Source: Escherichia coli (GTDB taxonomy: Bacteria; Pseudomonadota; Gammaproteobacteria; Enterobacterales; Enterobacteriaceae). From it: 16,645 bases of DNA. Below are positions 1 to 16,558 of this stretch, piece after piece (position 1 is the stretch's first letter; the number at the start of each line of letters is the position of its first letter). Both the position numbers and the translations under genes were made by a program. Location: the NCBI RefSeq assembly GCF_003334355.1, contig NZ_QOWP01000049.1; one strand, written 5' to 3'. Under the pieces are notes generated by a model that worked only from the letters and a program-made list of their open reading frames with translations, was not told the origin of the DNA and made no database searches.

Positions 1-125
1 TGCAGTTGCCATGTTTTACGGCAGTGAGAGCAGAGATAGCGCTGATGTCCGGCAGTGCTTTTGCCGTTACGCACCACCCCGTCAGTAGCTGAACAGGAGG
101 GACAGCTGATAGAAACAGAAGCCAC
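1..125 (-). CDS. insA: IS1 InsA, N-terminal 41 codons (partial, runs off window start)
   Basis: Minus-strand translation from GTG at 125..123 gives [41 protein letters not shown], matching the IS1 InsA N-terminus from memory. Confidence 0.8.
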
Positions 126-180
126 TGGAGCACCTCAAAAACACCATCATACACTAAATCAGTAAGTTGGCAGCATCACC
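1..180 (-). mobile_element. IS1 insertion sequence, partial (terminus at 180, remainder lies beyond window start)
   Basis: Reverse complement of 158-180 is GGTGATGCTGCCAACTTACTGAT, which I recognise as the IS1 terminal inverted repeat, followed by the insA 5' region. Host AT-rich sequence begins at 181. Confidence 0.85.
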
Positions 181-1188
181 CGATTTTCTTATGGGATTAC
201 CGGTGGGAATGTTTTTGTTAGTTGTCTTGTTTTTGTTTTTTTCTATTTCGCAATCTTAATGACAGTGTCAGCAGATATGCCGCTTGTTGACTGTGTTTTG
301 ACTTTGTCACTGTTGGTTTTGCTTATATTTATGGCAGCAAAAGGACTGCGTTATCAGGCCTTGATGACTAGTCTCAAAGGCGTAAGATTTAGTTTTAATT
401 GCTCTTTGAAAGGGTTCTGGTGGGTAACCTTTTTCTTGCCGATTTTAATGGCCATTGGGATGGGGACTGTTTTCTTTATCTCGACAAAGATGCTACATGC
501 CAATAGTTCAAGTAGTGTTATTATATCTGTGGTTCTGATGGCAATAGTTGGTATTGTTTCCATTGGTATTTTTAATGGTACTTTATATAGTCTGGTAATG
601 AGTTTTCTCTGGAGCAATACCAGTTTCGGTATACATCGTTTCAAGGTGAAATTAGATACTACGTATTGTATAAAATATGCCATTCTCGCATTTTTAGCTT
701 TATTACCTTTTCTCGCTGTTGCTGGTTATATTATCTTCGATCAAATATTAAATGCGTATGATAGTTCTGTGTATGCAAATGATGATATTGAGAATTTACA
801 GCAATTTATGGAAATGCAACGTAAAATGATAATCGCGCAGTTAATCTATTATTTTGGGATTGCTGTTAGCACCAGTTATTTAACGGTGTCGTTGCGAAAT
901 CATTTTATGAGCAACCTGTCACTGAATGATGGGCGTATTCGTTTTCGCTCAACTTTAACATACCACGGTATGCTTTATCGCATGTGTGCGTTGGTGGTGA
1001 TATCCGGGATTACGGGCGGTCTGGCTTATCCACTGCTGAAAATATGGATGATTGACTGGCAGGCAAAAAATACGTATTTGCTGGGCGATTTGGATGACCT
1101 TCCTTTAATCAATAAAGAAGAACAACCAGATAAAGGCTTCTTAGCCAGTATTTCACGGGGAATTATGCCTTCTTTACCATTTCTGTAA
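181..1188 (+). pseudogene. 3' portion of a multi-pass inner membrane protein gene (YjgN-like by position), 5' end severed by IS1
   Basis: Frame-1 reading frame is open from the IS1 junction at 181 to TAA at 1186-1188; first ATG is at 259 (309-aa ORF in track). Highly hydrophobic, visibly AT-rich. Convergent with valS, where K-12 carries yjgN (synteny from memory). No start codon or RBS at the junction. Confidence 0.6.
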
Positions 1189-1192
1189 GAGA

Positions 1193-1227
1193 TAAAAAAG
1201 GCCGGAGCATGCTCCGGCCTTCGTTTT
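1193..1227. terminator. Bidirectional intrinsic terminator between the membrane-protein gene and valS
   Basis: Perfect 20-nt palindrome GGCCGGAGCATGCTCCGGCC at 1200-1219, flanked by an A-run (1193-1199) and a T-rich tract (1220-1227), between two convergent stop codons. Confidence 0.7.
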
Positions 1228-1241
1228 CATCACGGTGTTGA

Positions 1242-4097
1242 TTACAGCGCGGCGATAACAGCCTGCTGTTCAATCAGCTTCGCTTTCGCTTCCGCATAGC
1301 CTTCCAGCTTCTCACGCTCTTTCGCGATGACCGCTTCCGGTGCGCGGGCGACAAAGCCTTCATTCGCCAGCTTGTTCTCGATGCGGCTGATTTCGCCTTC
1401 GATCTTCGCCACTTCTTTCGCCAGACGCGCCAGCTCATCTTCTTTGTTAATGAGGCCAGCCATCGGGATCAGCAGCTCTGCGCCGTCGATAATCTTCGTA
1501 ACGGAAACCGGACCTTTGTCATCGGCAGGCAGCACGGTGATGCTTTCCAGACGCGCCAGGGTTTGCAGGAAGCCACGGTTTTCATTTACGCGACGTTCTG
1601 CATCCGCGCTGCAACCACGCAGCAGCAGCTCCAGCGGTTTGCCCGGCGCGATGTTCATTTCTGCACGGATGTTACGTACCGCAACGATCGCCTGCTTCAG
1701 CCACTCGGTGTCGGCCAGCGCCGCTTCATCAACCTGAGATGCATCATACTGCGGGAACGGTTGCAGCATGATGGTGTCGGCAGTGATACCGCAAAGTACT
1801 TTCACACGCTGCCAGATGGTTTCGGTGATGAACGGAATGATCGGATGCGCGAGGCGCAGCAGACCTTCCAGTACAGTCACCAGCGTATGGCGAGTACCGC
1901 GCAGTTCTGCTTCGGTGCCACCGTTCATTACCGGCTTGGTCAGCTCGAGATACCAGTCACAGAACTGGTTCCAGGTGAACTCATACAGAATGCCTGCGGC
2001 GATATCGAAGCGGAAGCTGTCCAGCGCTTCGCGGTACGCTTTGATGGTCTGGTTGAACTCCGCCAGAATCCAGCGGTCCGCCAGCGACAGCGTCATTTCG
2101 CCGCCGTTGAAGCCGCAATCCTGACCTTCTGTGTTCATCAGCACAAAGCGGCTGGCGTTCCACAGCTTGTTACAGAAGTTACGGTAACCTTCCAGGCGCT
2201 TCATATCCCAGTTGATGTCACGACCGGTAGACGCCAGCGCCGCCAGGGTGAAGCGCAGGGCATCGGTACCGTGCGGCTCAATGCCGTTCGGGAACTGTTT
2301 CTCGGTGCGCTTACGGATTTTGTCCGCCAGCTGCGGCTGCATCATATTGCCGGTACGTTTTTCCAGCAGTTCTGGCAGCGAAATACCGTCAACCATATCC
2401 AGCGGGTCGATAACGTTACCCTTGGATTTGGACATCTTCTGGCCTTCGTCGTCACGAATCAGACCGGTCATGTAAACAGTGTGGAACGGCACCTGCGGTT
2501 TGCCATTTTCATCTTTGATGAAGTGCATGGTCATCATGATCATGCGGGCAATCCAGAAGAAGATGATGTCGAAACCAGATACCATCACGCTGGTTGGGTG
2601 GAACTGACGCAGGGCGTCGGTGTTTTCCGGCCAGCCAAGGGTAGAGAAGGTCCACAGCGCAGAAGAGAACCAGGTGTCGAGAACGTCTTCGTCCTGACGC
2701 AGGGCAACGTCGGCACCGAGGTTATTTTCCTTGCGCACTTCTTCTTCGTTGCGGCCAACATAAACATTACCCGCTTCGTCATACCATGCCGGGATACGGT
2801 GACCCCACCACAGCTGACGAGAGATACACCAGTCCTGAATATCGCGCATCCAGGAGAAATACATGTTTTCGTACTGCTTCGGTACGAACTGAATGTCGCC
2901 GTTCTCAACCGCTTCAACCGCCGGTTTCGCCAGTACATCGGCACGCACGTACCACTGGTCGGTCAGCATTGGTTCGATAACTACGCCGCCACGGTCGCCG
3001 TAAGGAACGGTCAGGTCGTGCGGTTTAATTTCTTCCAGCAGGCCGAGTGCGTCAACCGCAGCAACGACTGCTTTACGTGCGGCAAAACGCTCCAGTTTCT
3101 GGAATTCTGCCGGGATCTCGCTGGAATAAACGTCAGATTCGTTACCTTTGGTATCGAACACCTGGGCGCTTTCACGGATATCGCCGTCAAAGGTCAGGAT
3201 GTTGATCATCGGCAGGGCGTGACGTTTACCGACTTCATAGTCGTTAAAGTCGTGCGCCGGGGTGATCTTCACGCAGCCGGTGCCTTTTTCCATGTCGGCG
3301 TGTTCGTCGCCAACGATCGGAATACGACGGTTAACCAGCGGTAGAATGACATATTTGCCAATCAGGTCTTTGTAACGCGGATCTTCCGGGTTAACGGCTA
3401 CACCGGTATCGCCCAGCAGGGTTTCCGGACGGGTAGTCGCAACCACCAGGTAATCTTTACCGTCTGCGGTTTTCGCACCGTCAGCCAGCGGATAGCGGAT
3501 GTGCCACATCGAACCTTTCGATTCGCGGTTTTCCACTTCCAGGTCAGAGATAGCGGTGCGCAGTTTCGGGTCCCAGTTTACCAGGCGTTTGCCACGGTAA
3601 ATCAGGTCTTCTTTATACAGACGAACGAAAACTTCTTTCACCGCATTGGACAGGCCTTCGTCCATCGTGAAGCGTTCACGCTCCCAGTCCACGGAGTTGC
3701 CGAGACGGCGCATCTGACGGGTAATGGTGCCGCCGGATTCCGCTTTCCATTCCCAAATTTTGTCGATGAAAGCTTCGCGGCCGTAGTCGTGACGGGTTTT
3801 ACCTTCTTCTGCGGCAATCTTGCGCTCAACGACCATCTGGGTAGCGATCCCGGCGTGGTCAGTACCGACCTGCCACAGGGTGTTTTTGCCCTGCATGCGC
3901 TGATAGCGGATCATGGTATCCATGATGGTTTGCTGGAAGGCGTGACCCATATGCAAACTGCCGGTGACGTTCGGCGGCGGGATCATGATGCAGAAACTTT
4001 CCTGGCTTTCATCGCCATTAGGCTTAAAGTAGCCCTGCTTTTCCCAGTGCTCGTAAAGCGGCTGTTCGATATCTTGTGGGTTATATGTCTTTTCCAT
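1242..4097 (-). CDS. valS: Valine--tRNA ligase (valyl-tRNA synthetase), 951 aa
   Basis: Full-length ORF with class I aaRS HMGH and KMSKS motifs; N-terminus [24 protein letters not shown] matches E. coli ValS from memory. Confidence 0.97.
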
Positions 4098-4540
4098 TAT
4101 TTCCAGGTTGCCGTATTCAGGTTGAAACCAGCCACGCGGTAGGCTTTATAGCGTTCGCGCGCCAGTTGTTTCAGAGAATCTTCATAAGGAACGAAGTCTA
4201 CCACTTCTGTGAAAGCGGTGGCAAAATCTGCAAAGCTTGTTCGCAGACTAATCAATATATCGCGCGGGCTGCTGCTGCGTTTTTGCGGCCAGGCGATCTC
4301 CACCGGCGCACCGCCGCGCGGTCCTTCTCCCGCTAAATTATGCGGAACAAAGCTTTCTGCCGGACGCGCCCACAGGGCTTCATCCAGCCGGTAAGCCTGC
4401 TTTTCATCTTCACAGGCGATGAGCACGCGCTTACCGCTGCGCCAACGTTCTGCGGCAATTTCACACACCAGTTGCTCAACGGCGCTTAAGCCATCGACGG
4501 TGGTGTCATTGTCCAGAAGGTAGAACGTCGCGTTTTTCAT
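4097..4540 (-). CDS. holC: DNA polymerase III chi subunit, 147 aa
   Basis: 147-aa ORF immediately upstream of valS; its stop overlaps the valS ATG by 1 nt (TAATG). Sequence and position match E. coli HolC from memory. Confidence 0.92.
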
Positions 4541-4570
4541 AAATGGGGCTTCTTGTGGTGGATTTAAATA

Positions 4571-4894
<324 letters not shown>

Positions 4895-4895
4895 A

Positions 4896-6673
<1,778 letters not shown>

Positions 6674-7774
6674 GTGATAATCATAAGATATCTGGTGCGG
6701 GAGACGCTCAAAAGCCAGCTGGCGATACTCTTCATCTTGCTTTTGATCTTCTTCTGTCAAAAGTTAGTGAGGATCCTCGGCGCAGCGGTTGACGGCGATA
6801 TTCCGGCGAATCTGGTGCTCTCCCTTCTCGGGTTGGGCGTGCCGGAAATGGCGCAGCTTATCCTGCCATTAAGCCTGTTCCTCGGGCTGCTGATGACGCT
6901 GGGCAAACTGTATACCGAAAGTGAAATTACGGTAATGCATGCCTGCGGCCTGAGCAAAGCGGTTCTGGTGAAAGCGGCAATGATCCTTGCGGTATTCACG
7001 GCAATCGTCGCGGCGGTTAACGTGATGTGGGCGGGACCGTGGTCATCGCGTCATCAGGATGAAGTGTTAGCAGAAGCGAAAGCGAACCCTGGCATGGCGG
7101 CGCTGGCGCAAGGGCAATTCCAGCAAGCGACTAATGGCAGCTCGGTGCTGTTCATCGAAAGCGTTGACGGCAGCGATTTCAAAGATGTGTTCCTCGCACA
7201 AATTCGACCAAAAGGTAATGCACGTCCTTCTGTGGTGGTGGCCGATTCCGGACATTTAACCCAGCTGCGCGACGGCTCCCAGGTCGTCACTCTCAACCAG
7301 GGAACGCGCTTCGAAGGCACTGCACTGTTACGTGATTTCCGCATTACGGATTTCCAGGATTATCAGGCGATCATTGGTCACCAGGCGGTGGCGCTCGACC
7401 CGAACGATACCGACCAGATGGACATGCGCACATTGTGGAACACTGACACCGATCGTGCTCGCGCAGAACTGAACTGGCGTATCACGTTGGTATTCACCGT
7501 GTTTATGATGGCACTTATGGTCGTACCGCTGAGCGTGGTTAACCCACGTCAGGGACGCGTACTGTCGATGCTGCCAGCCATGCTGCTGTATCTACTTTTC
7601 TTCCTGATCCAGACCTCCCTGAAATCGAACGGCGGTAAAGGTAAGCTGGACCCGACGCTGTGGATGTGGACCGTTAACCTGATTTATCTGGCTTTGGCGA
7701 TTGTTCTCAACCTTTGGGACACCGTGCCGGTCCGCCGCCTGCGCGCCAGTTTTTCGCGTAAAGGAGCGGTGTGA
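6674..7774 (+). CDS. lptF: LPS export ABC transporter permease LptF, 366 aa (GTG start)
   Basis: Begins MIIIRYLVRETLKSQ from GTG at 6674; multi-TM protein; matches E. coli LptF (YjgP) from memory. Confidence 0.93.
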   Translation: MIIIRYLVRETLKSQLAILFILLLIFFCQKLVRILGAAVDGDIPANLVLSLLGLGVPEMAQLILPLSLFLGLLMTLGKLYTESEITVMHACGLSKAVLVKAAMILAVFTAIVAAVNVMWAGPWSSRHQDEVLAEAKANPGMAALAQGQFQQATNGSSVLFIESVDGSDFKDVFLAQIRPKGNARPSVVVADSGHLTQLRDGSQVVTLNQGTRFEGTALLRDFRITDFQDYQAIIGHQAVALDPNDTDQMDMRTLWNTDTDRARAELNWRITLVFTVFMMALMVVPLSVVNPRQGRVLSMLPAMLLYLLFFLIQTSLKSNGGKGKLDPTLWMWTVNLIYLALAIVLNLWDTVPVRRLRASFSRKGAV

Positions 7775-8856
7775 TGCAACCTTTTGGCGTACTTGACCGC
7801 TATATCGGTAAAACTATTTTCACCACCATCATGATGACGCTGTTCATGCTGGTGTCGCTGTCAGGCATTATCAAATTTGTCGATCAGTTGAAAAAAGCCG
7901 GGCAGGGGAGTTACGACGCGTTAGGCGCAGGAATGTATACCTTGCTGAGCGTGCCGAAAGATGTGCAAATATTCTTCCCGATGGCGGCTTTGCTTGGGGC
8001 GTTGCTTGGTCTTGGGATGCTGGCGCAGCGCAGCGAACTGGTGGTGATGCAGGCTTCTGGTTTCACCCGTATGCAGGTTGCGCTGTCGGTGATGAAAACC
8101 GCCATTCCGCTGGTCTTACTGACGATGGCGATTGGTGAATGGGTCGCGCCGCAGGGCGAGCAGATGGCGCGTAACTACCGTGCGCAGGCGATGTACGGCG
8201 GCTCGTTGCTCTCTACCCAGCAAGGCTTATGGGCGAAAGATGGCAACAACTTCGTCTACATTGAGCGGGTTAAAGGTGACGAAGAGTTAGGTGGCATCAG
8301 TATCTATGCCTTTAACGAGAATCGTCGTCTGCAATCCGTACGCTATGCCGCTACCGCGAAGTTTGACCCGGAACATAAAGTCTGGCGTCTGTCGCAGGTT
8401 GATGAATCTGATCTGACCAATCCGAAACAGATTACCGGTTCGCAGACGGTGAGCGGCACCTGGAAAACCAACCTCACGCCTGACAAACTGGGCGTGGTGG
8501 CGCTGGATCCGGATGCACTCTCTATCAGCGGTTTGCACAACTATGTGAAGTATCTGAAATCGAGCGGTCAGGATGCCGGACGTTATCAGCTCAACATGTG
8601 GAGCAAAATCTTCCAGCCGCTATCCGTGGCGGTGATGATGCTGATGGCGCTGTCGTTCATCTTTGGCCCACTGCGTAGCGTACCGATGGGTGTGCGTGTG
8701 GTCACCGGTATCAGCTTCGGTTTTGTCTTCTATGTACTGGACCAGATCTTCGGCCCGCTGACGTTGGTTTATGGCATCCCGCCGATCATCGGCGCACTGT
8801 TGCCAAGCGCCAGCTTCTTCTTAATCAGCCTGTGGCTGTTAATGAGAAAATCGTAA
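7774..8856 (+). CDS. lptG: LPS export ABC transporter permease LptG, 360 aa
   Basis: ATG at 7774 overlaps the lptF stop by 1 nt (TGATG); AAGGAG RBS at 7761-7766. The track ORF starts 3 nt earlier at GTG 7771; the ATG gives the expected 360 aa. Confidence 0.92.
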
Positions 8857-10518
8857 CCGAATGAACGAATAAAGGGAGCGAAAGCTCCCTTTATTATTGT
8901 TAGCAAAGTGTGCTTCGTTCATTCCTGAAAAATAATTAAAATCCAATATATTGCAGTGGTGTAGGCATGATAAGACGCGCCAGCGTCGCATCAGGCAAAG
9001 ACAAATCGCGCCTGACTTACCTTCTTCTTCCCCCAGCAAACTCCCCAACATCCCGCGTACAATCTGATTCGTCACCTGGCGGGCGGCGCTTTTCGCCATT
9101 GTTTGCACCACACCATCTTTCTTCCCGCCGCGTGGTCCGGTAGTGCCAAACAAAATATCCTTCAATCCACCAAGAATGCCGTCATCCACCGCCACCTCTT
9201 TCCCTTTCACGGCAGGATTATTTTGCTGCTCGGCGCTTGCCTGTACGCCTTTTTGCAACATCTCATAGGCGGATTCCCGGTCCACGTCATCCTCGTACTT
9301 GCCATACACCGGAGAGTGATTAATCAAGCCATTACGCTCATCTTCCGTCACCGGTCCCATCCGCGAACAAGGCGCAATCACCATCGCCCGTTCCACCACA
9401 GAAGGGCTTCCTTTCGCATCCAGAAAAGAGATCAACGCCTCGCCGGTGCCCAGTTCCTGAATCGCCTTTTCGGTATCAAATGCCGGATTGACCCGCATGG
9501 TTTGCGCCGCAGCTTTTACCGCTTTCTGATCTTTGGGCGTAAAAGTCCGCAAAGCGTGTTGAACGCGATTACCGAGCTGGCCGAGCACGTTATCCGGAAT
9601 ATCGGACGGATTTTGCGAAACGAACCAGACGCCCACGCCTTTTGAGCGAATAAGCCTTATCACCTGCTCAATCTTATCCAGCAGTACCTGCGGTGCATCG
9701 TTAAACAGCAGATGTGCCTCGTCGAAGAAAAACACCAGTTTTGGTTTCTCCAGATCGCCCGCTTCCGGCAATTGTTCATACAACTCCGAGAGCATCCACA
9801 ACAGGCTGGCGGCATACAGTTTCGGCATCTGATAAAGCTTCTCGGCGCTGAGGATATTGATAACGCCTTTACCGTTGGCATCGGTGCGCATCCAGTCTTT
9901 GATATCCAGCATCGGCTCACCAAAGAAGTGTGCTGCGCCTTGCTGTTCCAGCGACAACAGCCCGCGCTGGATGGCACCAACCGATGCGCTACTGATATTT
10001 CCGTACTGATTCTGGAAAGATTTGGCGTTATCGCCGATGTACTGGGTAATCGCCCGCAAATCTTTAAAGTCGAGCAGTAACAGCCCCTGATCGTCAGCAA
10101 TGCGGAAGATGATATTCAGCACGCCAGACTGCACATCGTTGAGATTCAACAGCCGCGCCAGCAACAGCGGCCCCAGATCCGAAACCGTCGCCCGCACCGG
10201 ATGGCCTTTCTCGCCAAAGATATCCCACACCACCACCGGATTGGCATGCGGTTGCCAGTCATTGACGCCGATATTTTTAAGCCTTGTGAGCAGTTTTTCC
10301 GACGCCGTTCCTGCCTGCGCGATACCGGTCAGATCGCCTTTCACATCAGCCATAAACACCGGCACGCCGATTTCCGACAATGACTCTGCCAGTTTTTGCA
10401 GCGTAACGGTTTTACCCGTCCCCGTTGCGCCAGTAATCAGCCCGTGACGGTTAGCCATTCCCGGCAGTAAAAACAGTTCTGTGTCCGGCGTGCGGGCAAT
10501 TAACAGGGGTTCGCTCAT
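8839..10518 (-). CDS. yjgR: YjgR-type P-loop ATPase; ORF in this sequence is 559 codons, about 59 longer than expected
   Basis: ATG at 10518 with GGAGG RBS; Walker A GATGTGKT near the N-terminus. The ORF continues through the REP element and the lptG terminator hairpin and overlaps lptG by 18 nt; the last ~59 codons are probably read-through. Confidence 0.85.
8871..8895. terminator. Intrinsic terminator hairpin downstream of lptG
   Basis: AAAGGGAGC-GAAA-GCTCCCTTT stem-loop at 8871-8892 followed by T-rich ATTATTGTT, 15 nt after the lptG stop. Confidence 0.55.
8961..8996. repeat. REP element
   Basis: GTAGGCATGATAAGACGCGCCAGCGTCGCATCAGGC is the reverse complement of the same REP consensus seen in the 4571-4894 array. 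Confidence 0.65.
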
Positions 10519-10617
10519 GAGATTTCCTCCAGTTTCCTGCCTGGAGTATAGGCAACGGCTGTGCACTCTTCACCGCTAAATTCAGCAGATTGCGAGACGC
10601 CTTCCAAAGAGATTTAA

Positions 10618-10644
10618 GTGCCGGGCGACAGGCACCCGGCAAAG
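10618..10644 (-). terminator. Candidate ahr terminator hairpin
   Basis: Inverted repeat TGCCGGG...CCCGGCA just downstream of the ahr stop on the minus strand, followed by a modest U-rich tract. Confidence 0.3.
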
Positions 10645-10647
10645 GGA

Positions 10648-11667
10648 TCAGAAGTCGGCTTTCAGGACCACGCGGTAGCGCGCTTTACCATCGCGTACAT
10701 GCTGGATGGCGTCGTTAATTTTCGACATCGGGAACAGTTCGGTGGTCGGCGCAACCTTGCTGCGGGCGGCAAAACGCATCAGCTTACGCAGCTCATAAGG
10801 CGTGCCGGTAGCAGAACCAGAGATGCTGCGGTCGCCCGCAATTAACGTAAAGGCCGGAACAGACAGCGGCGTGAGAACCGCACCGACCGTATGGAAATTA
10901 CCGCCATAGGTCAGCGCCTCAAAATAAGGCTGCCAGTCGAGGCTGACGTTCACAGTATTGATAATGAGATCAAACTGCCCCGACAGGGCTTTCAGTGCCT
11001 GCGGATCGCGGCTATTCACCACTTTATCGGCACCCATCGCCAGTACTTCCTGCTCTTTCGCCGGATTAGAACTAAAGGCCGTCACCTCGCATCCCATTGC
11101 GTGCAGAAGTTTTATAGCGATATGCCCCAGCCCGCCAATACCAATTACCCCAACGCGGCTGGTAGCAGTGATATGGTGCATCAACAGTGGTTTAAAGACC
11201 GTGATACCGCCGCACAACAGCGGCCCGGCGGACTCGATATCAATATTTTCTGGCAGTGGAATCACCCATTGCCAGTCCGCACGCAACTTCTCGGCAAAGC
11301 CACCGCGATTCATAATCGTCGGCACCGCACCTTGCTCGCAGTTGATCTGATTACCGCTAATACAGGCGTCGCAGTGACCACAGCTACGCGCCGTCCAGCC
11401 AATCCCGACACGCTGACCGACCTGCAAACCTTTATCCTGCGCGGCGCTCCCGAGTGCCACCACGCGCCCAATCACCTCATGCCCGGCAACCAGCGGATAT
11501 TGTGAAAATCCCCATTCGTTATCGATCATCGACAGATCGGAATGACAAATCCCGCAGTAATCCACCTGCACTTCAACATCTTGTGGCTTCAGCTCACCGG
11601 GATCGTACTCATAAACTTCCAGTTCGCCGCCCGCTTCTTTTGCGGCATAGCTTTTTATCATCGACAT
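10648..11667 (-). CDS. ahr: NADPH-dependent aldehyde reductase Ahr (YjgB), Zn-dependent alcohol dehydrogenase family, 339 aa
   Basis: ATG at 11667 ([14 protein letters not shown]) with GAAGGA RBS; zinc-ligand region GHEVIGRV and Rossmann [10 protein letters not shown] motif. The track ORF is 14 codons longer from an upstream ATG without RBS. Confidence 0.9.
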
Positions 11668-11862: not shown

Positions 11863-11947
11863 GCCGAAGTGGCGAAATCGGTAGACGCAGTTGATTCAAA
11901 ATCAACCGTAGAAATACGTGCCGGTTCGAGTCCGGCCTTCGGCACCA
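11863..11947 (+). tRNA. leuX: tRNA-Leu (anticodon CAA), 85 nt, type II tRNA with long variable arm, encoded CCA
   Basis: Acceptor stem GCCGAAG/CTTCGGC, anticodon loop TTCAAAA, T-loop GGTTCGAGTCC, 3' ACCA. Confidence 0.95.
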
Positions 11948-12133: not shown

Positions 12134-13399
12134 ATGGCATTAACAGATATCAAAGTCAGAACAGCCAAGCCAACAGATAAGCAATATAAGCTGACTGATG
12201 GTGGCGGTATGCATCTGCTTGTCCATCCAAATGGTTCTAAGTACTGGCGTTTGCAGTACCGTTATGAGGGAAAGCAAAAGATGTTGGCACTTGGGGTTTA
12301 TCCTGAAATCACACTAGCGGATGCCAGAGTACGCCGTGACGAGGCGCGTAAGCTGCTTGCGAATGGAGTCGATCCGGGAGACAAAAAGAAAAATGATAAG
12401 GTTGAACAGAGTAAAGCACGAACCTTTAAAGAAGTCGCGATCGAGTGGCATAGCACCAATAAAAAGTGGTCTGAAGATCACGCCCATCGTGTGCTAAAAA
12501 GTCTGGAAGATAATCTTTTTGCAGCGCTTGGTGAACGTAATATCGCTGAGTTAAAAACTCGAGATTTATTAGCACCCATTAAGGCCGTGGAGATCTCTGG
12601 ACGTCTTGAAGTGGCAGCTCGTCTTCAACAGCGCACTACAGCCATCATGCGCTATGCAGTACAAAGTGGGTTAATTGATTATAACCCGGCACAAGAGATG
12701 GCTGGGGCGGTTGCTTCCTGTAATCGACAACATCGTCCGGCGCTTGAATTAAAGCGCATCCCTGAGTTGCTTACAAAAATAGATAGCTATACTGGTAGGC
12801 CGCTAACCCGATGGGCGACAGAACTCACTTTGCTGATCTTTATTCGGTCCAGTGAGCTGCGTTTTGCTCGCTGGTCAGAGATCGATTTCGAAGCGTCTAT
12901 ATGGACTATCCCACCGGAGCGGGAGCCTATTCCTGGAGTGAAGCATTCCCATAGAGGCTCAAAAATGCGTACAACGCATCTAGTGCCTCTTTCAACGCAA
13001 GCCCTTGCAATTTTAAAGCAGATAAAACAGTTTTGTGGGTCTCATGACTTGATATTTATTGGTGATCACGATTCGCACAAGCCTATGAGTGAAAATACGG
13101 TAAATAGTGCGTTACGGGTCATGGGGTATGATACAAAAGTTGAGGTTTGTGGTCATGGCTTCCGCACAATGGCCTGTAGTTCATTGATCGAATCAGGTTT
13201 GTGGTCTCGTGATGCTGTTGAACGTCAGATGAGCCACATGGAGCGAAATTCAGTGAGGGCCGCGTATATCCATAAAGCAGAACATCTGGAAGAACGGCGA
13301 TTGATGTTGCAATGGTGGGCCGATTTTCTTGATGCGAACCGGGAGAAGGGTATCAGTCCGTTTGAATACGCAAATGTTAACAATCCGCTGAGAAGGTGA
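12134..13399 (+). CDS. P4-type tyrosine recombinase / integrase, 421 aa, apparently intact
   Basis: Full-length ORF immediately 3' of a tRNA gene; GGAGGG RBS 7 nt before the ATG; sequence resembles P4-family integrases from memory; visibly lower GC than the core genes. Confidence 0.9.
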   Translation: MALTDIKVRTAKPTDKQYKLTDGGGMHLLVHPNGSKYWRLQYRYEGKQKMLALGVYPEITLADARVRRDEARKLLANGVDPGDKKKNDKVEQSKARTFKEVAIEWHSTNKKWSEDHAHRVLKSLEDNLFAALGERNIAELKTRDLLAPIKAVEISGRLEVAARLQQRTTAIMRYAVQSGLIDYNPAQEMAGAVASCNRQHRPALELKRIPELLTKIDSYTGRPLTRWATELTLLIFIRSSELRFARWSEIDFEASIWTIPPEREPIPGVKHSHRGSKMRTTHLVPLSTQALAILKQIKQFCGSHDLIFIGDHDSHKPMSENTVNSALRVMGYDTKVEVCGHGFRTMACSSLIESGLWSRDAVERQMSHMERNSVRAAYIHKAEHLEERRLMLQWWADFLDANREKGISPFEYANVNNPLRR

Positions 13400-13618: not shown

Positions 13619-13951
13619 ATGATTGACATAGTTTCCCAAACGGAAAAATCACTTCCCTTCTTGGAAGAAAATCTGCGAGCACATATAAAATGGAAACAGC
13701 ACGGCGGCCCTTGTGAAATCCCCAATGGCCTGGCGTTTTGCGCAATTCACCATAAAGTCTTTGATAAAGGATCGATTGGTCTGGATGAAAATATGCGGGT
13801 ACTGGTCTCGGATGTGGTAAACGGCGGAGGGATCGTTGAGAGATTATTCTGGGATTTTGACGGGAAAACTATTGCGTTGCCACAGGTGCGTAAAAATTAC
13901 CCTTTTGAGGGGGTTGTGGAGTGGCATCGGAAAGAGGTTTTTAGGGGGTGA
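13619..13951 (+). CDS. Small ORF (110 aa) carrying only an HNH-type nuclease core; probably a 5'-truncated remnant
   Basis: Motif HGG...PNGLAFCAIHHKVFDKG resembles the C-terminal HNH core (NGLxLCxxHHxxFDxG) of larger HNH endonucleases. An in-frame TAG sits immediately before the ATG and the RBS is weak. Confidence 0.4.
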   Translation: MIDIVSQTEKSLPFLEENLRAHIKWKQHGGPCEIPNGLAFCAIHHKVFDKGSIGLDENMRVLVSDVVNGGGIVERLFWDFDGKTIALPQVRKNYPFEGVVEWHRKEVFRG

Positions 13952-14061: not shown

Positions 14062-15060
14062 TTACTGTTCAGCTTTTTCAACAACAAAACCATTTTGCCG
14101 TACAAACTCAATCAAGAGTTCAATATTAACAATGCCCCATTGATTAGAAATAGCAACAATTTCACCAGAAGGAAGTGTAATCAACGCATCTTCATTAATA
14201 TGATAGCGACTCTTTTGCTTCTCTGGTATCTGATCGACAAGCATAACCGTCCGTTTTTTAAAGTCTTCACTTAACCCATTTATTAAATCATTATAACTTG
14301 CAGGATTAAATTGATTTATCCAATCGCGTAATAATTCAAGCGCTAATTTACGCTTATTAAGTTCTTTATCTTTATATATATACCACGTATAGTCCTTCTC
14401 TTTTTTCTGACTGCTAATTAGCTGCTCATCACGTTTTTCACGAAATTTAACTTGATATTCTTCCAATTCAGGAACCGGTATGATTTGCTCTGCATTGATC
14501 AGAACATCATCATTAAATCTATAAGGCGTCAGACGAACACATCGAATGTCTACCCCCTTATCTCTTAACCAAATCGCAGTGGTAGTCAGTTCCTTGCTAA
14601 AATCCGATGAAGCCAAAACAATTCTGATATCTTTTCCGAAATCAACAAGCTCAGTTTCATCCAGCTCAACAAATTCAAGTATTTTTTCTTTCGCATCGGC
14701 ATCGCAGTTTTGTTTTTTCAAATACGTCTGGAAATATTCACATGCTTTCGCAAAACTCATTGTGGAAATCATCGCTGCATATCGTAGTGCCTGTAACTCC
14801 ATATGCGCACCAGTTTCATCACGTTTTAATTCGATAACCACTAAATTTGCCTGTTTATCGATTGCCAATAAATCAATTCGCCGACGGCTATCTTCCCAGT
14901 CAGAAAACTCTTCGGAAATCACCAGACAATCAGGAGCAATAATATCTATGTTTTTTTTGATTGCTTCCTGTAAATCATAACGTTCCTGTAATCCTTCCAG
15001 AGTAAAGGTCGTTTTTTCTAAAGCATGTAGTTCTTTATTTGCGATATTGTACAGCGCCAC
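14062..15060 (-). CDS. Uncharacterised protein with N-terminal RecB-like PD-(D/E)xK nuclease motif, 332 aa (GTG start)
   Basis: Uninterrupted 332-codon ORF with AGGAAG RBS; very AT-rich. Residues 61-94 RIDLLAIDKQANLVVIELKRDETGAHMELQALRY give D-x(n)-ExK plus QxxxY. The C-terminal ~200 aa has no motif I recognise. Confidence 0.75.
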   Translation of the reverse strand: MALYNIANKELHALEKTTFTLEGLQERYDLQEAIKKNIDIIAPDCLVISEEFSDWEDSRRRIDLLAIDKQANLVVIELKRDETGAHMELQALRYAAMISTMSFAKACEYFQTYLKKQNCDADAKEKILEFVELDETELVDFGKDIRIVLASSDFSKELTTTAIWLRDKGVDIRCVRLTPYRFNDDVLINAEQIIPVPELEEYQVKFREKRDEQLISSQKKEKDYTWYIYKDKELNKRKLALELLRDWINQFNPASYNDLINGLSEDFKKRTVMLVDQIPEKQKSRYHINEDALITLPSGEIVAISNQWGIVNIELLIEFVRQNGFVVEKAEQ

Positions 15061-15353
15061 GTTTATCTTCCTTTTTTAACTGATTTTACAGGGACTTTAA
15101 CACAGTAAAAATTTTATTTCCTGAGCTGTAATCGATTAAGCTGATGCACTAAATGGGAATCATATAGGGTCATTTCCAGTCTCACTTATAGAAATGGCTA
15201 AAGCATGACTCTCGCCAAAACCGTGTATGTGTTGTACATAACGCGATCATCCCTCTCACAAATTGCCTTTTCTCATGGCATCTCGCCCGGTCCCCCATTA
15301 CAATCACTTTTTGTTTTTTGCGAGCTGCATTCCAGTCTTCAGAGGGTTTTTCG

Positions 15354-15959
15354 ATGATTAAAAATGACAAGGCATGGGTAGGAGACTTGCTGGGCGGGCC
15401 GCTCATGAGCAGGGAAAGCCGCGTCATTGCCGAACTGTTGCTAACCGATCCCGATGAACAGACATGGCAAGAGCAAATTGTTGGCCACAACATTTTACAA
15501 GCCTCTTCTCCTAACACCGCAAAACGTTACGCGGCAACAATCAGGCTTCGCCTGAACACGCTTGATAAAAGCGCGTGGACATTGATTGCCGAAGGTAGTG
15601 AGCGGGAACGCCAACAACTTCTGTTTGTGGCTCTGACGCTACATTCGCCGGTAGTTAAGGATTTTCTGGCTGAAGTGGTGAACGATCTGCGCAGGCAGTT
15701 CAAGGAAAAGTTGCCTGGCAATAGTTGGAACGAATTTGTTAATAGCCAGGTTCGCCAACATCCGGTACTCGCCAGCTACTCAGATTCATCTATTGCAAAA
15801 ATGGGAAACAATCTGGTGAAGGCGCTTGCTGAAGCGGGTTATGTGGATACGCCCCGCAGACGTAACCTGCAGGCAGTTTACCTTTTACCGGAAACTCAGG
15901 CAGTGTTACAGCGCCTGGGGCAACAGGACTTGATATCTATTCTGGAGGGAAAACGGTGA
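15354..15959 (+). CDS. brxA: BrxA-like protein (DUF1819-type), 201 aa; first gene of a BREX-like cluster
   Basis: ATG at 15354 with AGAGGG RBS; ~200-aa, largely helical-looking protein whose stop overlaps the next start (GTGA). Assignment is from size, coupling and gene order, not from a recognised motif. Confidence 0.55.
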   Translation: MIKNDKAWVGDLLGGPLMSRESRVIAELLLTDPDEQTWQEQIVGHNILQASSPNTAKRYAATIRLRLNTLDKSAWTLIAEGSERERQQLLFVALTLHSPVVKDFLAEVVNDLRRQFKEKLPGNSWNEFVNSQVRQHPVLASYSDSSIAKMGNNLVKALAEAGYVDTPRRRNLQAVYLLPETQAVLQRLGQQDLISILEGKR

Positions 15960-16558
15960 TAGATCCCGTTCTTGAATATCGCCTGTCTCAAATCCAGAGT
16001 CGCATTAACGAAGATCGCTTCCTCAAAAATAACGGCTCCGGAAATGAAATTGGTTTTTGGATCTTTGATTATCCCGCGCAGTGCGAACTGCAGGTACGGG
16101 AGCATTTGAAGTATCTGCTCCGGCATCTGGAAAAGGACCATAAATTTGCCTGTCTGAATGTCTTCCAAATCATCATCGATATGCTCAATGAACGCGGCCT
16201 TTTCGAGCGCGTCTGCCAGCAGGAAGTCAAAGTGGGTACTGAGACGCTGAAAAAGCAGCTTGCTGGTCCGTTAAATCAGAAAAAAATCGCTGATTTTATA
16301 GCGAAAAAAGTCGATCTGGCTGCCCAGGATTTTGTCATCCTTACCGGCATGGGCAACGCCTGGCCATTAGTACGCGGTCATGAACTGATGAGTGCCTTGC
16401 AGGATGTCATGGGGTTCACCCCACTGCTGATGTTTTATCCTGGCACCTACAGCGGGTACAACCTTTCCCCGCTCACAGACACCGGTTCACAAAATTATTA
16501 TCGCGCTTTCAGACTGGTACCAGATACGGGACCCGCAGCAACATTGAATCCTCAATGA
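15956..16558 (+). CDS. brxB: BrxB-like protein (DUF1788-type), 200 aa
   Basis: GTG start at 15956 with GGAGGG RBS, overlapping the upstream stop by 4 nt; ~200 aa; followed by a third co-directional gene. Assignment by architecture. Confidence 0.55.
   Translation: MIDPVLEYRLSQIQSRINEDRFLKNNGSGNEIGFWIFDYPAQCELQVREHLKYLLRHLEKDHKFACLNVFQIIIDMLNERGLFERVCQQEVKVGTETLKKQLAGPLNQKKIADFIAKKVDLAAQDFVILTGMGNAWPLVRGHELMSALQDVMGFTPLLMFYPGTYSGYNLSPLTDTGSQNYYRAFRLVPDTGPAATLNPQ

Follow-up and report, generated by a model that had tools for sequence, protein, structure and literature searches.

Background

Whether the nuclease gene beside a BREX cluster in an Escherichia coli genomic island works for BREX, acts on its own against invading DNA, or serves some purpose outside immunity is the question raised by this locus. 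The window, that is, the whole stretch of 16,645 nucleotides analysed here (RefSeq assembly GCF_003334355.1, contig NZ_QOWP01000049.1), is an E. coli chromosomal segment comprising valS-holC-pepA-lptFG-yjgR-ahr up to a tRNA-Leu(CAA) gene (11863-11947), beyond which an island begins. A preliminary description of this sequence had drawn attention to an orphan open reading frame (ORF) with a PD-(D/E)XK signature in the island, and had suggested a stand-alone anti-phage effector, a BREX accessory or regulator, or a modification-dependent nuclease. Our analyses favour, with a probability of roughly 0.58, a stand-alone restriction-like defence nuclease whose target would be set by its C-terminal domain, a candidate function that we infer from genomic context.

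The novelty implied in that description did not survive comparison with existing catalogues. The protein matches the PADLOC model PDC-S11 (PDLC04909) with an E-value of 5.8e-114, its residues 1-323 covering profile positions 1-338 of 347, and four further PDC-S11 models match the N-terminal module. PDC-S11 is in fact the family itself, as judged by the full-length match, the same two-domain architecture and the same habit of lying beside or inside BREX and type I restriction-modification (RM) loci. PDC families are 'phage defence candidates' defined by their embedding in BREX, DISARM or type I RM loci (bioRxiv 10.1101/2024.01.29.577857), and the family studied here recurs in such locations. 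In addition, a 2026 survey ranked PD-(D/E)XK restriction endonucleases (REases), stand-alone and fused, first in prevalence among auxiliary effectors adjoining BREX (PMC12839542). Our literature search retrieved no experiment on the PDC-S11 family, at least three of the four papers that name it being genome surveys, and RefSeq accessions of the family were found in no paper of the searchable literature. PDC-S11 is a computational defence candidate; given the PADLOC entry and the survey cited above, both the gene and the idea were already known, and it does not represent a new kind of system.

Results and discussion

A low-GC island gene under purifying selection

The complete nuclease gene (14062-15060, minus strand) has a GTG start at 15060, a stop codon at 14062-14064 and a product of 332 amino acids. 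The ORF call bears out the length and AT-richness first described for it, the GC content of this region (0.33-0.39) being the lowest in the window, compared with about 0.50-0.57 in core genes. A Shine-Dalgarno sequence, AAGGAAG, can be read 6 nt upstream of the start codon, and the start residue is the same as that of the homologues in a 60-sequence alignment. The product corresponds to RefSeq WP_001240354.1 and shows no amino-acid difference from the HS30-1 copy.

An indexed search returned more than 7,800 homologous matches, with 3,503 clusters at 50% identity (E<=1e-3), and DNA of the gene was present in 554 of 5,426 complete E. coli genomes (about 10%). Among seven intact E. coli alleles, with dS of up to 0.12, differences were mainly synonymous and dN/dS mostly ranged from 0.03 to 0.07. 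Because of these thousands of homologues and low dN/dS values, the ORF is a real gene under purifying selection and not a chance ORF. An antisense ORF inside it (14546-14980, plus strand), serine-rich and without support, was rejected.

RefSeq labels for the protein vary among 'hypothetical', 'membrane protein', 'PDDEXK family nuclease' and 'DUF91 domain-containing protein'. The membrane label is wrong, since the protein lacks any hydrophobic segment that could span a membrane (maximum 19-residue hydropathy, 1.24). Its lysine (8.4%) and glutamate (10.5%) contents are only moderately high, so that the C-terminal part had been characterized too strongly as rich in these residues.

The surroundings of the gene agree with its earlier placement in an integrase-associated island at a tRNA gene, divergent from brxA. 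A P4-type integrase gene (12134-13399) lies beside tRNA-Leu(CAA), and brxA and brxB (15357-16558, plus strand; PADLOC BrxA E 1e-114, BrxB E 5e-68) are the first genes of a type 1 BREX cluster that continues past the end of the window. The order integrase, nuclease, BREX was correctly given, but a further element had been overlooked between the first two. This is the remnant of an SBD-HNH 'phosphorothioated DNA-binding restriction endonuclease' gene (13619-13951, plus strand; NCBIfam NF045808, profile positions 196-284 of 284), which retains the C-terminal 110 or so amino acids and is convergent with the nuclease gene; a full-length 290-aa gene occupies the same position in O111 11128, 90-9280 and Ec1117. 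On the other side, a 296-bp intergenic region (15061-15356) separates the nuclease gene from the divergent brxA, and contains the Shine-Dalgarno sequence (15067-15073) and a promoter-like site facing brxA (15275-15304), to be read with the reservation that the promoter and terminator scan gave no more sites than shuffled sequence.

A predicted PD-(D/E)XK nuclease related to, and distinct from, NucS

The conserved N-terminal module spans residues 1-215 (14416-15060, minus strand) and is predicted to combine a restriction-endonuclease-like core with a helical insert (about residues 103-140) and a conserved beta-hairpin (residues 171-193). The catalytic signature extends over 14779-14985 on the same strand, with E26 at 14983-14985, D63 at 14872-14874, E77-x-K79 at 14824-14832 and Q90xxxY94 at 14779-14793. 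In the 60-sequence alignment, which reaches down to 35% identity, E26, D63, E77, K79, Q90, R93 and Y94 are invariant and constitute the complete RecB/NucS-type motif set, while D68 is kept in 59 of the 60 homologues; the signature originally read as D63, D68, E77-x-K79 and Q90xxxY94 was hence correctly positioned. The only Pfam match was NucS_C (E 0.0027), and the NCBIfam NucS model NF003270 was hit with an E-value of 4e-7 over profile positions 121-200 only, at 29.4 bits against a cutoff of 216. A further weak profile match was to NucS of PDB 2vld, with whose active-site segment the catalytic residues align.

Profile HMMs and structure prediction, the check proposed at the outset, recovered the expected PD-(D/E)XK fold, and both features of the superfamily are present, a restriction-endonuclease-like alpha/beta core in the predicted structure and the conserved D...(D/E)-x-K in the alignment. 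Sequence profiles, the invariance of the catalytic residues and the fold prediction give full support to the NucS-like assignment, and the gene product is predicted to be a cytoplasmic, metal-dependent DNA endonuclease with a PD-(D/E)XK (NucS/RecB-like) fold. The two-part plan first proposed, an N-terminal nuclease followed by some 200 residues of another nature, also stands, but with a different boundary: the module reaches about residue 215 rather than about 130, and the separate domain is limited to the last 114 amino acids.

NucS/EndoMS (PDB 2vld, 5gke), the closest solved relative, differs in architecture and in distribution. NucS carries its nuclease domain at the C-terminus, preceded by a dedicated N-terminal domain for DNA binding and dimerisation, whereas the present protein has an N-terminal nuclease and then an unrelated domain; NucS belongs to the core repair genes, and the gene described here is an island gene in about 10% of E. 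coli. The Shedu (SduA) proteins, stand-alone restriction-fold defence nucleases with exchangeable sensor domains, provide another comparison, although their sensor is N-terminal and the domain order is therefore reversed. Pfam SduA_C (DUF4263) did not match our family significantly (E<=0.1 in 2 of 60 members), and no PADLOC Shedu model matched.

That NucS is a repair enzyme gives some ground for a function outside immunity, whether as a repair or recombination nuclease, as a factor for the maintenance or competition of the island, or as a transcriptional regulator of the divergent BREX promoter. Some homologues have metabolic neighbourhoods, at least one lying inside a leucine-catabolism cluster (a housekeeping context), and the gene is often found beside integrases and insertion sequence (IS) elements. 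Nevertheless, the protein lacks the NucS N-terminal DNA-binding domain and scores far below the NucS cutoff, and its restriction to low-GC islands in about a tenth of E. coli genomes is not what would be expected of such a function. As for regulation, the invariant catalytic residues favour catalysis over mere binding, and the BREX promoter works in K-12 without the nuclease. No helix-turn-helix or WYL domain was detected with Pfam, NCBIfam or PADLOC, so that the architecture is not that of a BrxR/WYL-type regulator, and no notable inverted, operator-like repeats were found in the intergenic region, repeats being limited to the coding region. Overall, a non-immune role appears very unlikely.

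A rapidly diverging and exchangeable C-terminal domain

Residues 219-332 (114 aa; 14065-14406, minus strand) form a predicted alpha/beta domain, which we propose to be the target-recognition domain. Predicted alone, it reached a pLDDT of 94. Within it, D223, K236 and R285 are near-invariant and W308, in an SNQWG motif, is invariant. No Pfam family matched this domain, a comparison with PDB sequences gave only spurious weak matches (NMN adenylyltransferase, lectins), and a profile search against an index of 5.8 billion proteins returned only E. coli fragments. Even so, the initial impression that the C-terminal part matches nothing had to be abandoned: the PADLOC PDC-S11 model spans the whole protein, and the AlphaFold database (AFDB) has many further instances of the fold. 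Foldseek retrieved it there behind nuclease domains of the DUF91, HSDR_N and DUF4297 types, within an AAA ATPase and a DUF4357 protein, and on its own in proteins of about 160 aa. One of the matches, A0A6C7IJ66, is a 245-aa 'inner membrane protein' of Salmonella (S. Typhimurium) D23580, 68% identical to the C-terminal-domain query and the sole D23580 entry among the matches.

The tails of 139 representative relatives carried the same type of C-terminal domain in 92 cases and DUF4268 instead in 16. In the tail alignment identity to the query was about 20-30%, as against about 35-55% for the whole protein, which indicates that the C-terminal domain diverges faster than the nuclease. Fast divergence together with exchange is the pattern that would be expected of a target-recognition module.

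A more specific version of the stand-alone reading holds that the C-terminal domain senses a base or backbone modification of phage DNA and that the nuclease cuts nearby, in the manner of a modification-dependent, type IV-like enzyme. The gene adjoins BREX and type I RM systems, which target unmodified DNA and to which such an activity would be complementary, as well as the type IV SBD-HNH gene, and the pairing of BREX with BrxU offers a parallel (bioRxiv 10.1101/2024.01.29.577857). The alternative tail DUF4268 is common to GmrSD enzymes, having been described fused to these type IV restriction enzymes (PMC4619093), and the invariant Trp and the conserved Arg, Lys and Asp of the C-terminal domain could line a pocket. 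The modification-dependent enzymes AspBHI and MspJI were found among the fold matches of the nuclease domain, but such matches are generic for the superfamily. The C-terminal domain showed no significant similarity to known modified-base readers, among them SRA, EVE, YTH and SBD, nor to recognised DNA-binding folds, and we consider modification dependence in particular to be unlikely.

A linked, non-essential neighbour of BREX in E. coli

In the near-identical HS30-1 locus, the cluster that begins in the window is present as a full brxABC-pglXZ-brxL set. The intergenic region is about 98% identical in six E. coli loci located at four different tRNA sites, and the nuclease gene, the intergenic region and brxA form one block, likewise about 98% identical, at leuX, pheV, selC, thrW and on a Klebsiella IncFII plasmid. 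The nuclease gene is present over at least 80% of its length in 497 E. coli genomes, and in 333 it is contiguous with brxA; since brxAB occurs in 313-399 genomes, nearly every BREX locus of this type carries the gene or a remnant of it. About one third of the E. coli carriers have the nuclease gene without an adjacent brxA. In the arrangements seen among these, either IS1 has removed BREX or the nuclease accompanies a full-length SBD-HNH gene beside a P4-like satellite.

In several genomes the nuclease is a pseudogene, by frameshift or IS insertion, beside an intact BREX cluster (EC958, O111 11128, G3/10, EC14). The same is true of E. coli HS, the model BREX strain, whose nuclease copy is both IS1-truncated and frameshifted (extracted locus L022, 5195-5602). 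The HS BREX clone (340,696-354,491) starts in the intergenic region and excludes the nuclease, and a two-plasmid combination of brxABC and brxXZL is enough for full protection and methylation (PMC6326788). It follows from the broken HS copy, the limits of the clone and the full protection conferred by these genes that the nuclease is neither a core BREX component nor a required activator; none of the PADLOC Brx or Pgl models (BrxA, BrxB, BrxC, PglX, PglZ, BrxL) matched it. Conversely, brxA and brxB are neighbours and not parts of the nuclease system.

An optional role in BREX could still be envisaged, with the nuclease as an auxiliary or backup effector that degrades BREX-flagged DNA or fires when a phage inhibits BREX. 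The conserved block that travels between tRNA sites and a plasmid, the nearly constant association with BREX loci of this type, and the prevalence of PD-(D/E)XK REases among BREX auxiliary effectors (PMC12839542) would all be consistent with such a role. On the other hand, HS BREX protects without the nuclease, the nuclease decays beside intact BREX, and it is kept intact where BREX is absent, observations that weaken the BREX accessory or regulator first suggested. The survey of co-occurrence that had been called for showed a linked block in E. coli; outside Enterobacteriaceae, BREX was adjacent in about 1-3 of 77 loci, compared with 18 loci having type I RM nearby. We therefore regard the BREX auxiliary as rather unlikely.

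Two classes of known companions allow the comparison to be extended. Both BrxU (a GmrSD type IV enzyme) and the auxiliary PD-(D/E)XK REases resemble our nuclease in riding with BREX without being among its six core genes. However, BrxU is of the DUF262/HNH type and has a shown activity against modified DNA, whereas the nuclease studied here differs in fold, is encoded outside the operon and on the other strand, and has an activity that is predicted only.

Some further arrangements of the E. coli block were observed. Plasmid p3B5617 of K. pneumoniae carries the E. coli BREX cluster and an identical nuclease protein on a conjugative IncFII backbone; its block is bounded by IS26, and an IS1 is inserted in the nuclease-brxA intergenic region. 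Ec1117 and PigCaeca_1 lack BREX, and their leuX island holds a P4-like satellite (primase-helicase, Icd-like, ogr/Delta) beside the nuclease and SBD-HNH pair. Given this satellite in the place of BREX, the pair looks like the stable edge of a hotspot for different inserts.

Defence neighbourhoods across bacterial phyla

Selecting one genome per species yielded 80 loci, 77 of them usable, in which all neighbouring ORFs were clustered; the neighbours could not be classified in many of the 77. No universal neighbour or partner gene emerged among these 77 species-level loci. The most frequent neighbour detected outside E. coli was type I RM (HsdR in 15 loci, HsdS in 13, HsdM in 12), followed by P4-type integrases. 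Where at least 5 kb of upstream sequence was available, type I RM genes lay within 10 kb in 17 of 57 loci, mostly upstream and co-oriented. Twenty large neighbours from 15 other loci were also tested, and known or candidate defence genes turned up in seven of these 15, namely a type IIG RM, LeoA/BC, Dsr1, HKD-Snf2, PDC-M33, BREX with SIR2-HerA, and a Mokosh-like helicase.

Vibrio cholerae and V. harveyi carry the homologue within a type I-F3 CRISPR-associated Tn7-like transposon, as cargo placed immediately behind a type I RM operon. Elsewhere, it follows hsdMS and a PLD-helicase gene in Shewanella, adjoins an LlaJI-type RM system in Citrobacter and lies near type I RM, GmrSD and SBD-HNH genes in Morganella. 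Two paralogues occur in tandem in V. cholerae and on Klebsiella plasmids. The family was found in 358 of 72,556 plasmid records as against 2 of 50,697 phage records. The nuclease family thus sits in defence islands of many bacterial phyla without a constant partner gene.

A conserved two-gene system was considered and rejected: the genes downstream of the homologue in Vibrio and Shewanella are unrelated to one another, and the V. cholerae neighbour is a second paralogue. In the extracted Vibrio loci (L005-L008, L017-L018) the homologue, at 10001-10993, has the type I RM operon on one side and tniQ-cas8-cas7-cas6 on the other; the second paralogue (361 aa, also PDC-S11) follows it in V. cholerae, where a candidate pair, PDC-M04A/B, precedes it. 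ScoMcrA-type genes or fragments were seen near homologues in Citrobacter and Morganella, and the nuclease and SBD-HNH genes may form a recurrent pairing in Enterobacterales.

Proposed mode of action and implications

In the stand-alone reading, the nuclease would act alone as a restriction-like enzyme of innate immunity. Its fast-evolving C-terminal domain, in whose place paralogues sometimes have another domain, would recognise a feature of invading DNA and thereby license cleavage by the N-terminal module. Placed beside methylation-based systems such as BREX and type I RM, it may provide a second and mechanistically different layer of defence. No immunity or antitoxin partner that would account for the sparing of self DNA was found in the neighbourhoods examined. 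The frequent inactivation of the gene in E. coli could mean that it is dispensable or costly.

If the nuclease does restrict phages, it would represent a compact single-gene nuclease present in about one tenth of E. coli and in many phyla, and one that naturally accompanies BREX and type I RM; published work on BREX has not examined it, because the E. coli HS copy is broken. Knowledge of its target would help to explain how complementary activities are layered in defence islands, and could yield a new DNA-recognition domain. The new points of practical use are that the HS copy is broken, that intact natural alleles are strongly constrained, and that the C-terminal module recurs with other nuclease domains. 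As a more speculative and distinctly unlikely extension, the C-terminal domain might be an undescribed reader of a feature of phage DNA (a modified base, a backbone modification, or a replication or packaging intermediate), PDC-S11 a widespread new class of single-chain restriction enzymes backing up methylation-based systems, and E. coli BREX islands the carriers of a cleavage arm overlooked because the HS copy is broken and the Salmonella D23580 copy is possibly shortened.

Rearrangements and other elements of the window

The block formed by the HNH remnant, the nuclease gene and BREX is inverted in the window and in HS30-1 as compared with 90-9280 and O111 11128, relative to leuX and the nan/fim genes. 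In HS30-1 an IS1 adjoins brxL and fimH is truncated, which suggests inversion and deletion mediated by IS1. Within positions 1-1188, the left edge of the window also matches IS1, and the ORF at 259-1188 is a low-GC piece of yjgN (DUF898) that was apparently interrupted by this element. Finally, Rfam searches identified two copies of naRNA4, a REP-type nucleoid-associated RNA, between holC and pepA (4648-4723 and 4746-4821), and an antisense match to Ysr276 inside pepA (5655-5849).
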